From contig CACGNZ010000005.1 of NCBI GenBank assembly GCA_902574475.1, positions 2,466 through 66,465 of the forward strand: a stretch of 64,000 bases of DNA. The letters run 5' to 3'. Positions within the stretch are counted from its first letter, which is position 1; every line of letters starts with the position of its first letter. Of the stretch, positions 14,239 through 19,367 are shown piece by piece. Below the pieces are notes generated by a model. The model was not told the DNA's origin. It saw only the letters and a program-made list of their open reading frames with translations, and searched no databases. Position numbers and translations under genes: made by a program. This DNA is from an uncultured Alphaproteobacteria bacterium (lineage in GTDB: Bacteria; Pseudomonadota; Alphaproteobacteria; HIMB59; GCA-002718135).

Positions 14239-16765
14239 TCAATTCTTAACTGTTTTTTTCTTTTTTTTGAGACCCATTTTAGCTTTTCTTTCATCAATTA
14301 ACCTAATGGCATCTTCTAGTTTTAAGCTATCTATTGATTGATCACCAAGAATTGAAGCATTTATTTTTCCACATTTTACATATGGTCCAAATTTTCCATC
14401 ATGAGCAGTAATGTTTTTCTTTTCTGTTGGATGCTCACCAAATGTTTTTAGCGTAGCATTACCTCTCTGTGTAGGTTTAGCAATTAATTCAATGGCTCTT
14501 TCAAGTTCAATATCAAGAATATTATCTGTTTTTTCTAGAGCTTTATATTTTTTATCATGCAGAATATATGGTCCATACATTCCTATACCTGCGCTAACCG
14601 TTTTATTTGTTTCTGGATGAAAACCTAATTTACGTGGTAAGCCAAGTAGTTGAATAGCTGTGTTTAATCCTATTTCATCTGGTTCAAAATTTTTAGGAAT
14701 AGAAACTCTTTTTGGTTTCTTTTCTTTTGTCCCTTCACCAACTTGCATATAAAATCCATAAGGACCTTTTCGAAGAGTAATCATTTCACCTGTTTCTGGA
14801 TAAATACCAATTTCTTTTGGTCCGCTAAGAGCAGCGCCATCTTTATCGTTTAATTGATTAAACTGAACCGTATATTTACAATCAGGATAATTAGAGCAGC
14901 CAATAAATCCTCCAAACTTTCCAACTTTAATTCCTAGTCTTCCATTATCACAGGTTGGACATTTCCTTTTTTCATCTGCTCCGTTTGGTGGAAAGAAATG
15001 CGGACCTAGCGCTTCATCTAACACATCAATCACTTCTCTATTTGATTTGCCTACTGTTTCATCACAAAGTTGTTTAAATGTTTCCCAAAATTTTCTTAGA
15101 ACCTCTTTCCAATCAAGCTTACCATCAGAAATTTCATCAAGTTGATTTTCAAGATCAGCGGTAAAATCATATTCTACATATTGATTGAAATATTTCTCTA
15201 AAAATATCGATACTATTCGTCCTCTATCATGAGGATTAAAACGTTTTTTATCTAAAATTACATAATCTCTATCTTGTAGAACTTTAATAATAGAAGCATA
15301 AGTAGATGGTCTGCCAATGCCAAGTTCTTCAAGTTTTTTAACTAAGCTTGCTTCGGTGTAACGAGGAGGAGGGGAGGTAAAATGTTGTGTCTTTTCAACT
15401 TCTTTTAAATTTAAACTCTCTCCTTCACTCATTGCAGGAAGAATTGTTTCTTTTTCTTCATCTTTATCATCATCTTTAGCTTCTTGATAAACTTTGTACA
15501 TTCCAGGAAACTTGATTGTTGATCCATTTGCTCTTAAAACAATTTTTTTATCTTCGTTTGTAATATCAACAGCTACCTGATCTAATACAGCACTCGCCAT
15601 TTGTGAACTTACCGCTCTTTGCCATATAATTTCATATAATTTATATTCTTCTAAAGTAATGTATTGCTTAATATCTTTTGGTGTTAGGTAAATATTTGTT
15701 GGTCTAATACATTCATGTGCTTCTTGGGCATTTTTAGCTTTTGATTTATAAACTCTTGGCGCTTCAGGTAAATAGTTTGCACCATAATTTTCAGTTACAA
15801 AACCTCGAACTTGGTTAATAGCTTCTTTTGACATGATGACACTGTCTGTTCGCATATAAGTTATTAAGCCAGTTGTTTCTCCTTTAATGTCTGTTCCTTC
15901 ATAAAGGCGTTGAGCTGTGCGCATTGTTTGGCTCGCACTAAGACCAAGTTTACGACTAGACTCAATTTGCATCGTAGATGTAGTAAAGGCAGGGTAGGGA
16001 TTTCTTCTAGCTTCTTTTTTTGTTATATTTCCAACAGTGAAAGTAGAATTTTTAATATCATTAAAAATTTTTGTCGCCTCACTCTCATTTTTAATATCAA
16101 GTTTATCTACTTTATTCCCATCATAAACTGTAAGTCTTGAATTAATGATTTTATCTTCTTTATTTCTAAACTCGCCTTGTAAAGACCAATATTCCTGTGG
16201 AATAAATTTTTCTATTTCAAGTTCTCTCTCACTAATTATTCTTAAGGCAACAGATTGAACTCTACCCGCTGATTTTGAACCTGGTAACTTTCTCCATAGT
16301 ACTGGAGAAAGTGTAAAACCGACAAGAAAATCTAACGCTCTTCTTGCAAGGTAAGCATTTACTAAATTTTCATCTATTTCTCTTGGCTCTTTAAGACTAT
16401 CAAGAACTGCATTTTTTGTAATTTCATTAAATGTAACTCGGTGAATATTTAATTTTGAAAGTGATGAATTATCTCTAAGTAATTTTTCTACATGCCAAGC
16501 TATGGCTTCACCTTCACGGTCGGGATCAGTGGCTAGATATAAATTTTCAGATTTTTTTGCTGCATCTGTAATTTCTTTTATAACTTTTTTTTCCACGATC
16601 ACTAGTTTCCCATTTCATTTGGAAATCATTTTCAGTATCTATCGCATCATTTTTTGCTGATAAATCTCGGACATGTCCAACACTTGCGAGAACTTTAAAG
16701 TCAGAGCCTAAATATTTATTAATAGACTTTGCCTTCGATGGTGATTCAACAATTAATACATTCAT
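14239..16765 (-). CDS. topA: DNA topoisomerase I, interrupted by a one-base frameshift in an A8 run (16585-16592)
   Basis: IVESPSKAK and GHVRDL in one frame; [16 protein letters not shown] and ITYMRTD in the next; removing one A gives a continuous ORF. Confidence 0.93.
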
Positions 16766-16830: not shown

Positions 16831-17436
16831 TTACTTGGATAATTTAATTTTACTTTCAGTTTTTTTTATGAGTCTTTTAATGTTTTCTGTGTGTTTAAGA
16901 TAAATAATTAAAGTTAAATAAATAAAGAAAATTAGAATATAAAAATTAAAATTAATAAAAATATAATAAGCTGGAGCTATTAAAATTCCAATTAAAGATC
17001 CAAGAGAAGAGTATTTACTTACAAAAGCAGTAACAAGCCATACCAATAAAAATAAAATTGCAATGTAAGGATTAAAACCAAATAAGAAGCCAATATACGT
17101 AGCCACTCCCTTTCCACCCTTGAATTTTAACCAAACTGGATAGATATGACCTAAAATCGCAAAGTGACAGAGAAGTATTTTATTCAATAAAGAGATATCT
17201 TGAAAATACATTTGTAAAATGAGGAATGGAAGAAAGCCTTTAAAAATATCAAAACAAAGAACAATGAATGCTACAAATTTATTTCCTGTTCTTAAAACAT
17301 TTGTTGCGCCTACATTTCCAGAACCAACCTTTCTAATATCTCCCAAGCCAAATAATTTTGTAAAAATCAATGCAAAGGGTAATGATCCTATTACATAAAA
17401 AAATATGATTAATGATAAACTACTTACTAAAGTCAT
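16831..17436 (-). CDS. plsY: Glycerol-3-phosphate acyltransferase PlsY
   Basis: GSGNVGATNVLR, GHIYP, FKGGKGVAT, HTENIKRL. Confidence 0.96.
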   Translation of the reverse strand: MTLVSSLSLIIFFYVIGSLPFALIFTKLFGLGDIRKVGSGNVGATNVLRTGNKFVAFIVLCFDIFKGFLPFLILQMYFQDISLLNKILLCHFAILGHIYPVWLKFKGGKGVATYIGFLFGFNPYIAILFLLVWLVTAFVSKYSSLGSLIGILIAPAYYIFINFNFYILIFFIYLTLIIYLKHTENIKRLIKKTESKIKLSK

Positions 17437-18565
17437 CTCTGTTTTTAATAATTAAGTCTAAGCATGCCATTCTTACTGCAACGCCCATAGCGACCTGTTC
17501 TTGTATTAAGCTCCTCGTGACGTCATCGGCAAGTTTTGAGTCTATTTCTACACCACGGTTCATTGGACCTGGATGCATAACGAAAGCATTTTTTTTAGCA
17601 TATTTAAGTTTATTGTAATCTAATCCATACTTTTTAAAATAAGTCTTTTGATTAGGCATAATTTTTCCAACTATTCTCTCTTTTTGAATACGTAGCATCA
17701 TAACAATATCACAATTTTGTAATCCCTTTTTCATTTCAGTATAAACATTCACAGGAAGTTTTTTTAAACTTTTTGGTAACCATTCCTTTGGACCAATAAC
17801 ATTTATTTTTGCACCTAACTTTGAGAGAATGATTATGTTTGATCGTGCAACGCGGCTATGTAAAATATCGCCGCATATAGCTATTTTTAATTTTGAAAAA
17901 TTTTCAAATTTATTTTTTATAGTAAGTGCATCTAATAACGCTTGTGTAGGGTGTTCATGACTTCCATCACCAGCGTTAATTACAGAGGCATCAACTGATT
18001 CAGAAATTTTTTTACTAATTCCTTCCTCCGGATGTCTCACAATTAAGACGTCTGGATTCATTGAATTAATAGTAGTCATAGTATCGAGTAAGGTTTCACC
18101 TTTATTTATAGAACTATCTTTTACCACTACATTAATGAGATCTGCTCCTAACCTTTTAGCAGCAACTTCAAAACTTGTTCTTGTTCTTGTTGAATCTTCA
18201 AAGAAAAGATTAAATATTGTTCTCCCCTCTAGAACATTTATTTTTTTAATTTTCCTTTTATTAAAAGATATATATTTTTTAGATTCATCTAAGATGTGCT
18301 TAATTTCTTTCTTGGTTAAGTCAGCTGTTTCTACTAAATGAGTTTTTTTAAAAATATTTTTTGTTCGTTTTAATTTTATATTTGTTTTTGAAGAAATTGA
18401 TGAATAATATTTTAAAGCTATATTTTCTGCATCTTTAAGAATTTTTGAACCTGTAGATGATCTGATCGCTTTTAATTTAGGCAATTTGACTTTCATTTGC
18501 CAATATTTCGAATTTTCTCTTTTATATAATTTTATATGTCCTGATTTTAGTAGTTTTGAATTCAT
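17420..18565 (-). CDS. pyrB: Aspartate carbamoyltransferase catalytic subunit with an ~70-aa N-terminal integrase-arm-like extension
   Basis: FFEDSTRTRTSFE, HPTQALLD, HPGPMNRG; the ATCase core begins near FKKTHL. Confidence 0.95.
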   Translation of the reverse strand: MNSKLLKSGHIKLYKRENSKYWQMKVKLPKLKAIRSSTGSKILKDAENIALKYYSSISSKTNIKLKRTKNIFKKTHLVETADLTKKEIKHILDESKKYISFNKRKIKKINVLEGRTIFNLFFEDSTRTRTSFEVAAKRLGADLINVVVKDSSINKGETLLDTMTTINSMNPDVLIVRHPEEGISKKISESVDASVINAGDGSHEHPTQALLDALTIKNKFENFSKLKIAICGDILHSRVARSNIIILSKLGAKINVIGPKEWLPKSLKKLPVNVYTEMKKGLQNCDIVMMLRIQKERIVGKIMPNQKTYFKKYGLDYNKLKYAKKNAFVMHPGPMNRGVEIDSKLADDVTRSLIQEQVAMGVAVRMACLDLIIKNRDDFSK

Positions 18566-18595
18566 ATGTGTCAATAATGTGTAAGTATGTGTAAA
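18566..18595. repeat. Three phased direct repeats ATGTGT(C/A)A abutting the pyrB start codon
   Basis: ATGTGTCAA at 18566, ATGTGTAAG at 18577 and ATGTGTAAA at 18587 (periods of 11 and 10 bp). Confidence 0.85.
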
Positions 18596-18603
18596 CTAAT
18601 TTA

Positions 18604-19062
18604 TTAATTATTTCTATATCTATCTAAATATCCTTGTAAGATATAAGCAGCCGATTGCTGATCAAGTTTACCTTTTATCTTTGTTTTACTTAAATCAGCT
18701 TTTCTCATTTCTTTAAAAATTACATCAGATGAAAATCTTTCATCCCAAAGAGCCGTAGGTTTTTTAAAAAAGGTTTGGAGATTATTATTAAAATCTCGTA
18801 CTAATTGACTTTGTTTATTTTCACTATTATCCATGCTAATTGGCAGACCAAGAATAAATCCACCAATTTCATACTCTTTCAAAATATCTTTCAAGATGAT
18901 CAAATCTTTATTAGTGCCTTTTCTTTGAATAATTGAAAGCGGTGTAGCGATTATTTTCGATCTATCACTTACTGCAACTCCAATCGTTTTAGTGCCTAGG
19001 TCTAGACCTACAAGTATTTGTGATGTATTAAGACCATCGATTAAATTATTTTGATCATTCAT
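18604..19062 (-). CDS. ruvX: Holliday junction resolvase-like / pre-16S rRNA nuclease RuvX (YqgF)
   Basis: GLDLGTKTIGVAVSD, GLP, WDERFSS, D..SAAYILQ; ATG at 19062. Confidence 0.92.
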   Translation of the reverse strand: MNDQNNLIDGLNTSQILVGLDLGTKTIGVAVSDRSKIIATPLSIIQRKGTNKDLIILKDILKEYEIGGFILGLPISMDNSENKQSQLVRDFNNNLQTFFKKPTALWDERFSSDVIFKEMRKADLSKTKIKGKLDQQSAAYILQGYLDRYRNN

Positions 19063-19079
19063 ATAATGGAGCTCATAAA

Positions 19080-19367
19080 TTGAAGATTGATAAAAATACA
19101 ATAAATAAAATTGCTCGTCTATCTAGAATAAAGTTAGATGATAAAGAATCTGAAGATTATATTAAGGATCTTAATTCCATTTTAGACTGGGTTGAGCAAT
19201 TAAATGAAGTAAATACTGAGAATGTAGAACCGTTAAGTAATATATCATCATCGATATTACCTAAAAGAGAAGATGTATCTAAAGATACGAATTCAAGTGA
19301 GGAAATTCTTGAAAATGCCCCTGATAAACTTGAAGGATTTTTTGCTGTACCAAAGGTGGTAGAATAA
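19080..19367 (+). CDS. gatC: Asp/Glu-tRNA amidotransferase subunit C
   Basis: IARLSRI, ILENAP, FFAVPKVVE; TTG start with upstream GGAG. Confidence 0.95.
   Translation: MKIDKNTINKIARLSRIKLDDKESEDYIKDLNSILDWVEQLNEVNTENVEPLSNISSSILPKREDVSKDTNSSEEILENAPDKLEGFFAVPKVVE

Follow-up and report, generated by a model that had tools for sequence, protein, structure and literature searches.

Three phased repeats in front of pyrB in an alphaproteobacterium of the HIMB59 lineage are probably the cognate sites of an integrase-like N-terminal domain of aspartate carbamoyltransferase

Heterobivalent tyrosine integrases, e.g. lambda Int with its sites P'1-P'3, Tn916 Int and the Int proteins of the HPI/SXT type, recognize arm-type sites, which are short direct repeats spaced by about one turn of the helix, and possess a small N-terminal domain consisting of a beta-sheet and a helix, located in the homologues in front of the core-binding and catalytic domains. 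In lambda P', three such sites lie adjacent to each other. A comparable combination was found at pyrB, the gene of aspartate carbamoyltransferase (ATCase), in a 64,000-nt stretch of DNA from an uncultured alphaproteobacterium (GTDB lineage HIMB59, GCA-002718135; assembly GCA_902574475.1, contig CACGNZ010000005.1, positions 2,466 to 66,465 of the forward strand), in the following called the window. Three phased ACACAT repeats occupy most of the 38-nt gap between ruvX and pyrB and, judged from sequence, they probably serve the 57-residue N-terminal domain of PyrB as its cognate DNA sites. Unlike in the integrases, this domain is attached to a metabolic enzyme and is not followed by core-binding or catalytic domains of a recombinase. 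Unlike an integrase att region, the pyrB locus comprises neither a core site nor a mobile element, and its position is fixed in 54 genomes.

Known control of pyrB, namely leader-peptide attenuation together with reiterative transcription at pyrBI of E. coli and PyrR-binding RNA in Gram-positive bacteria, also acts in the short leader before the gene. In contrast to these leaders, the gap described here contains no terminator hairpin, leader open reading frame (ORF), RNA structure or Rfam match. The AP2/ERF and ApiAP2 factors are thought to be derived from integrase- or HNH-associated AP2-like domains and represent a further case in which a beta-sheet DNA-binding domain of mobile elements was exapted for host gene control, but they are eukaryotic, stand-alone transcription factors and their cognate sites were not captured along with them. 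The bifunctional enzyme/regulators PutA, BirA and NadR ('trigger enzymes') are single polypeptides in which an enzyme is joined to a DNA-binding domain, and their operators lie at genes of their own pathway. Unlike these proteins, PyrB appears to carry an integrase-derived module that came with its sites, and its sole predicted target array lies at its own gene; instead of a dimer on a palindrome there is a trimeric enzyme with three direct repeats. The trigger-enzyme arrangement is also described for RbkR, a riboflavin kinase/regulator of Archaea (PMC5397151). IntS of prophage KplE1 is reported to repress its own promoter via an arm-type site beside the -10 box, and an overlap of attL with the integrase promoter is described there for most tRNA-linked integrase genes (PMC2951348). 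IntS and PyrB have in common that the sites are located just upstream of the gene whose N-terminal domain binds them, the binding being predicted in the case of PyrB. Unlike in the IntS system, the target is pyrB(-plsY) and not a recombinase gene, no promoter was located and there is no partner of the recombination directionality factor type.

The gap spans positions 18566-18603 and is read on the minus strand, between the ruvX stop codon TAA (18606-18604) and the pyrB ATG (18565-18563). Its sequence is TAAATTAG TTTACACAT A CTTACACAT TA TTGACACAT, directly followed by the ATG. An earlier note on this DNA had described three near-identical 9-mers, 10 and 11 bp apart and ending at the start codon. 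Exactly this arrangement was found: the starts of the 9-mers are offset by 10 and then 11 nt, all copies have one orientation, and a motif search of the gap with TNACACAT matched three times. The description of the repeats as filling the leader holds for 30 of the 38 nt, while the initial 8 nt (TAAATTAG) lie outside the repeats. The repeats and the parts of PyrB are as follows.

18587-18595, minus strand: repeat 1, TTTACACAT, its core kept in relatives
18577-18585, minus strand: repeat 2, CTTACACAT, the most variable copy, with the forms TTACACAT, TGACACAT, TAGCACAT and TTTCACAT in relatives
18566-18574, minus strand: repeat 3, TTGACACAT, directly adjoining the pyrB ATG
18566-18603, minus strand: the whole ruvX-pyrB gap of 38 nt, with 27 of 38 positions invariant among 39 unique sequences
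18395-18565, minus strand: PyrB residues 1-57, the N-terminal domain with homology to domains at the N-terminus (arm-type position) of integrases
18341-18394, minus strand: PyrB residues 58-75, variable Lys-rich linker, as judged by alignment variability and a predicted local distance difference test (pLDDT) value of 63-66
17420-18340, minus strand: ATCase catalytic core, residues 76-381 and stop codon (Pfam OTCace_N and OTCace, NCBIfam NF002032)

A family search with the whole protein covered 116 genomes, in 91 of which PyrB was found. For the tally of repeat cores, one locus per genome was counted and the extension plus at least 45 nt of upstream DNA were required, which applied to 54 genomes. 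The repeat array was kept in all 54 genomes. At least three [AG]CACA cores were present in 49 of them, and the remaining five have two cores and a degenerate third. The spacing of 10 plus 11 nt was found in 47 genomes (five of these with an additional overlapping core), and the six bases before the pyrB ATG were ACACAT in 51 genomes, GCACAT in two and TACACA in one. Among 39 unique sequences with the same architecture 71% of the gap positions (27/38) were invariant, compared to 60% for the second and 12.5% for the third codon positions of pyrB. Thereby the CACA(T) cores were retained while the bases between the cores vary. These alignments indicate that the repeat array is under purifying selection.

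The N-terminal 80 amino acids of PyrB were detected in 26 of the 36 genomes of the same genus, all of which are incomplete, and in none of the 24 genomes of the order's other family. Extension and repeats occur also in six of seven other genera of the family sampled, with PyrB identities down to 58-61%; for the family as a whole, conservation of the array was counted in 8 of 9 sampled genera. In these other genera the gap is on the whole longer (31-69 nt in the four measured) and one or two of the copies have degenerated (TTACATAA, GTACAAAT, GGTACATAT, ATCACATAA), with the final copy still adjoining the ATG; one genome (G139) even has three perfect TTTACACAT-type copies at a spacing of 11 and 11 nt. 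Six loci lacking the extension (L050, L054 and L055-L058) contained no ACAC in the 60 nt upstream of pyrB. Hence, both expectations of the earlier note, that the repeats accompany the extended PyrB and that they are missing without it, agree with the relatives. The loci L055-L058 belong to the other family, and ruvX directly adjoins pyrB there. L050 represents the seventh genus of the own family (genome G080). There, domain and repeats are gone, the linker tail KNKFCYKNKHLIE is kept (compare KNIFKKTHLVE), and a new ATG lies 6 nt past the ruvX stop codon. Since more divergent genera possess domain and repeats, this state looks like a secondary deletion, and G080 may serve as a natural deletion mutant for comparison.

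Wherever the 5' end was assembled, the reading frame is continuous from extension residue 1-6 into the enzyme, apart from the exceptions given here. Full-length loci show an open frame over the junction and synonymous changes from codon 2 on. Contig-end truncations account for G137 (confirmed) and for G007 and G014 (N-terminal part only); the partial matches in G031, G130, G011 and G012 were counted as such truncations as well, not individually confirmed. A frameshift was found in G029 (L020/L044), where the ORF of the N-terminal domain stops after residue 71 and the ATCase resumes in another frame, with the three repeats intact. This split is either a sequencing error of the metagenome-assembled genome or a natural separation into a stand-alone domain and an enzyme.

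Models of ATCase match PyrB only from residue 76 on (Pfam OTCace_N, residues 76-217; NF002032, 406 bits compared to a cut-off of 263). For residues 1-75 or the first 80 residues no credible Pfam or NCBIfam match was obtained, a match to Phage_TAC_9 (E 0.08, first 80 residues) being disregarded, and a sequence search of the PDB with the domain profile gave no match. Residues 7-55 are highly conserved and 32 of 60 columns are invariant within the genus, followed by the variable Lys-rich linker (56-75). Against 1.84 billion representative proteins, a profile built from residues 1-60 yielded 45 matches at E<=1e-3, mostly short fragments of the same fusion. Two FG-GAP repeat proteins among them (P0030, P0035) were judged false positives. 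Three matches were full-length, recombinase-like proteins of 387-413 amino acids (P0036, E 2.6e-5; P0041, 3.0e-4; P0045, 9.6e-4). In all three the match is located at the extreme N-terminus, core-binding domains (Phage_int_SAM_3/5) follow directly, and the proteins end in a motif of the LRHTYAT...HY type, which we take to be the recombinase boxes. A profile of proteins of this type matched the core-binding and catalytic domains of the solved integrase 6en0 (E 8.9e-5) and, below threshold, the XerC, XerA and XerS models.

The residues R16, S19 and Q23 are invariant over the PyrB N-termini and the integrase homologues, and W22, R35, S37, A46 and A50 are nearly so. In the reciprocal search, the only match of the integrase profile to this genome was the 5' end of pyrB (E 3.4e-13, model positions 1-104). 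Comparison of the PyrB N-terminal alignment with 23 integrase N-termini from metagenome loci by hhalign resulted in a probability of 98.8% (E 4.7e-17, 50 columns). An integrase ancestry of the PyrB N-terminal domain is well supported by these sequence comparisons.

A first AlphaFold2 model, based on sequences of the genus only, was poor (pLDDT 66.6), and a Foldseek search with it was uninformative. The broader alignment, which included integrase N-termini, gave a model with a pLDDT of 88.2 and a predicted template modelling score (pTM) of 0.70, comprising strands at residues 3-6, 11-15, 22-26 and 34-37 and a helix at 43-70. Arm-binding (AB) domains are described as consisting of three strands and a helix, with a fourth strand in the IntSXT/HPI type, as highly variable and as sometimes missed by Pfam (PMC8138268). 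In an exhaustive structural comparison the arm-type binding domain of the HPI integrase (3jtz_A) ranked second of 48,161 chains (Z 5.5, root mean square deviation 3.0, 59 residues); further matches were AP2 (Z 5.0) and a GCC-box domain (Z 4.0). The predicted fold is supportive only. Together, hhalign homology, reciprocal search and fold model speak in favor of the fused arm domain that the earlier note had proposed, even if the Z score is only 5.5.

A comparison with the arm sites of related integrases had been suggested in the earlier note, and its outcome was positive. One metagenome scan provided 80 loci with relatives of P0045 (42-62% identity); the genome contig L059 also encodes a relative. 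In the 250 nt upstream of 49 loosely de-duplicated loci, CACAC was among the most enriched 5-mers (45 vs 13.5 expected), and ACACT (38 vs 10.8) and ACACA (41 vs 16.2) were enriched, too. Other enriched 5-mers were generic AT-rich, Shine-Dalgarno (SD) and tRNA words. Within 39 strictly de-duplicated upstream regions ACAC occurred 7.2 times per kb on the gene strand, compared to 3.4 on the other strand and 4.1 elsewhere in the loci. Distances between ACAC words peaked at 9-11 nt, with 15 gene-strand pairs (1.2 expected) and one pair on the opposite strand. Because overlapping ACACAC inflates this pair count, the fairer figure is that of loci: a phased pair is present in 8 of the 39 non-redundant loci, compared to 1.19 on average and never more than 5 in 1000 first-order resamples. 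Examples are TTAACACACTTTTAACACAC (L118), ATTACACACCCGTTGCACAC and GCGCACACTGCGTTACACAT (both L077) and ATACACACTCATTACACAT (L062). In some loci ACAC is found at the integrase start, e.g. ACACTATG in L060, and elsewhere it is often far from start codons. As ACAC is enriched, strand-specific and phased, motif, strand and phasing of the pyrB repeats recur beside integrase genes with the homologous domain, although in a minority of loci. In L059 (4748-4984) the integrase gene directly follows tRNA-Arg(CCT), a partial copy of the 5' half of this tRNA lies about 160 nt upstream, and the AT-rich insert between the tRNA copies holds TTACACTAT, TTGCATAC and TTGCACACTAT. The arrangement resembles an att junction that contains candidate arm sites.

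The integrases of the loci L060-L139 together with P0036, P0041 and P0045 form a large environmental tyrosine-recombinase family, for which 557 of 599 pattern matches were confirmed in the one metagenome scan. Its N-terminal pattern is DGxVxLYKRxxSxxWQ...STK...A, and no Pfam model covers the domain; the single Pfam match among the 23 integrase N-termini was a weak one to DUF6538 (E 0.0085, one member). No relatives were found in viral contigs or in phage records. In a subgroup of nine loci (L075, L076, L079, L081, L083, L087-L089 and L095), a conserved block AAACACACACTT(T/C)(C/G)GTAGACTTGTTGGTG is located about 55 nt before the start. Just 5' of this block the upstream sequences are fully divergent, and ACACACAC seems to be the element boundary.

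The genome to which the window belongs (G000) comprises 1,303,962 bp in 59 contigs with 29% G+C and is 84% complete. ACACAT occurs 423 times in it on both strands. Only two ACACAT pairs have 3-6 nt between them, both in the pyrB gap, and the triple is found nowhere else in this genome. With relaxed cores (ACAC or [AG]CACA) and 9-12 nt spacing the gap was the sole chain of at least three, with 0.20 and 0.03 such chains expected, respectively, so that a second array is lacking anywhere in the 1.30-Mb assembly even with relaxed cores. The only array lies at the start codon of the very gene that encodes the additional domain, and therefore there is no regulon; the further arrays by which the earlier note had envisaged one do not exist in this assembly.

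On the whole, we lean towards the view that arm sites and arm-binding domain of an integrase were captured together and kept, and that PyrB binds to the repeats and autoregulates through them. The 5' end of a tyrosine-integrase gene, i.e. arm sites upstream of the start codon and the AB domain, would have arrived as one piece between ruvX and pyrB, which are adjacent genes in the sister family, and would have been fused in frame to pyrB via the Lys-rich linker in the ancestor of the family. The autoregulatory circuit of the ancestral integrase may thereby have been retained at pyrB. The retained end of an integrative element, offered before as an alternative to cognate sites, is the likely origin of both sites and domain and is not an alternative to them. 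The interpretation of the earlier note as a whole is partly supported.

ATCase catalytic chains form trimers. The PyrB oligomer would set its DNA-binding domains, on linkers of about 18 residues, at sites one helical turn apart over the last 30 bp before the start codon. Because ATCase is trimeric and no PyrI was found in the genome (84% complete), three heads on three sites of the same DNA face may be an attractive arrangement. Bound PyrB would lower the expression of pyrB-plsY, either by occlusion of a promoter or by blocking polymerases coming from ruvX. Binding itself, the sign of the regulation, the geometry of three domains on three sites and any dependence on substrate are inferred. Only tentatively, and with somewhat less than even confidence, we consider the more far-reaching version, in which the autoregulatory integrase cassette was domesticated whole and the ATCase trimer represses its own gene with three heads, possibly in response to substrate.

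Transcription across the gap was considered on the basis of RNA-library contigs. One of them (X2, record 2, 18510-18966, 27 differences) spans the 3' part of ruvX, the gap and 56 nt of pyrB, and two more cover the gap, without 31 nt on both sides. The RNA runs were assembled as contigs, so that starts and ends of transcripts are not readable from them. The first contig is compatible with read-through from ruvX; it may also stem from carry-over of DNA, and a single transcript is not implied. As there is no consensus promoter and an RNA contig bridges the gap, a roadblock to read-through from ruvX seems as likely as promoter occlusion. Three candidate promoters read by hand (TTTACA-N17-GACACA; TTGACA-N18-TAAAAT, inside the gene; TTGATT-N17-TACACA, in two other genera) were rejected, as their spacing was illegal, their -10 hexamers were poor or they were not conserved.

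Several observations weigh against this interpretation. The fold match is modest, its Z score of 5.5 lying below the caution line of 8 of the tool and rank 1 being an unrelated protein. Foldseek gave no match at E<=0.001 with the model of pLDDT 88.2 (E above 0.5), and no Pfam arm-domain model (clan CL0081) matched the PyrB N-terminus or the 23 integrase N-termini. Furthermore, 31 of the 39 integrase loci lack a phased ACAC pair within the 300 nt examined, and the consensus of the integrase flanks (ACACAC/ACACT) is similar but not identical to ACACAT, their sites being candidate arm sites. A consensus scan detected no sigma-70 promoter in or near the gap, and we know of no physiological precedent for negative autoregulation of an ATCase. 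Finally, sites and domain are contiguous on the DNA, and their joint presence as well as their joint loss in G080 are single events under any hypothesis. Due to this contiguity it is the selection on the cores, and not the co-occurrence, that is informative.

Alternatively it might be that the repeats act at the level of RNA, the C/A-rich, unstructured leader with three copies of UUACACAU aiding translation initiation independently of the domain, e.g. as a single-stranded landing pad for ribosomes. E. coli is known to have CA-rich translational enhancers, copy 3 always adjoins the ATG, and the leader has no stable RNA fold, being even less structured than its shuffles (z +1.35). The gap contains no SD sequence of the GGAG type, as the earlier note had stated, but this is nothing special here: SD-like 4-mers were found at 154 of 947 crude long-ORF starts (16%) compared to a background of 13%, and 5-mers at 8.3% compared to 3.5%, also with crude start calls. 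Since SD-like words barely exceed background genome-wide, their absence at pyrB is uninformative. The counts suggest that initiation in this genome is largely SD-independent, which fits an RNA-level element. CACAT before ATG is, however, no general initiation signal, occurring at only 2 of the 947 crude starts, and C is rare (7-12%) upstream of the starts of this genome. Moreover, such an element leaves unexplained the 10/11-nt phasing, the restriction to genomes bearing the domain and the phased motif beside homologous integrase genes, and we regard it as unlikely. Among conventional leader elements, terminators, leader ORFs and Rfam families were not found in the gap. A pyrBI-type attenuator or PyrR RNA site was rejected, as there is no terminator hairpin with a U-run, leader peptide or PyrR-binding stem-loop. 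Translation from the TTG at 18574 was ruled out, the codon being TTA or TTT in many relatives.

Another explanation, which we rate as improbable, is that a factor other than PyrB binds the sites: the integrase of a mobile element, acting in trans on what would then be a live attachment site, a regulator of the host, or RNA polymerase with the repeats as promoter elements. Integrases normally use arm sites in trans, and TTTACA and TTGACA resemble -35 hexamers. In the genome (84% complete), however, no integrase of this family was found, and in the 54 genomes the locus keeps its place between ruvX and pyrB, without element boundaries. Furthermore, TTGACA is not conserved (TTAACA, TTTACA or TAGCAC in relatives), and a promoter with legal spacing was not found. 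Binding by PyrB for a non-regulatory end, e.g. to anchor ATCase at the nucleoid or at its own locus or to help with assembly, appears more improbable still. It shares all evidence for binding of the domain to the sites, and it would fit with no promoter having been identified, but one array per genome located exactly at the start codon of its own gene is the layout expected of an operator, and the ancestral integrase circuit was autoregulatory. Least probable of all is an inert relic, i.e. functionless arm sites left over from an old insertion and kept by linkage: the likely origin from an integrase 5' end and the co-inheritance of contiguous sites and domain would agree with it, but the gap is more invariant than even the second codon positions of pyrB (71% vs 60%, third positions 12.5%), the cores persist in genera with 58-61% PyrB identity while flanking gap sequence and gap length change, and these small genomes have very short intergenic regions.

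On the minus strand the genes are arranged in the order ruvX, 38-nt gap, pyrB (18565-17420, 381 amino acids), plsY and topA. The neighbors of pyrB are as follows.

18604-19101, minus strand: ruvX ORF as listed, upstream of pyrB (Pfam RuvX, E 3.9e-39)
16831-17436, minus strand: plsY, overlapping the 3' end of pyrB by 17 nt

pyrB and plsY likely form one transcription unit. The listed TTG start of ruvX at 19101 overlaps the start of the divergent gatC (19080) by 22 nt. Translation of ruvX probably begins at a later ATG (MNDQNN...), which leaves a very short divergent region without an obvious promoter; the sole sigma-70-like match in the gatC/ruvX divergent direction (19165-19138) falls within gatC. 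The topA gene looks split, as a 77-amino-acid ORF with a TOPRIM-like N-terminus (16780-16547) overlaps an ORF of 787 amino acids (16602-14239) in a different frame. The switch of frame lies at a run of eight A (GGAAAAAAAAG) in the overlap (window positions 16547-16602, minus strand), pointing to a frameshift at the homopolymer or to an error of the assembly.

A full-text search of the literature, with supplements outside its range, revealed no paper linking ATCase to an arm-type or other DNA-binding extension. Fusions of enzymes and regulators as well as arm sites are each well known; new would be that an integrase AB domain and its sites were captured together on a core metabolic gene and kept family-wide. 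If the domain binds the sites, a housekeeping gene can acquire a ready-made regulatory cis/trans pair from a mobile element in a single step and retain it throughout a family, and a trimeric enzyme with three direct repeats would represent a new enzyme-regulator architecture. Binding would at the same time define the DNA motif, an ACAC core with 10-11 bp phasing, of a large environmental integrase family whose N-terminal domain no Pfam or NCBIfam model matched, and this motif would help to delimit the mobile elements of these integrases. Should the cassette have been domesticated in the way described, this would be the bacterial equivalent of how the AP2 factors arose and the first joint capture of sites and domain, and it would provide a streamlined marine bacterium possessing few regulators with a feedback on pyrimidine synthesis that needs no separate transcription factor.

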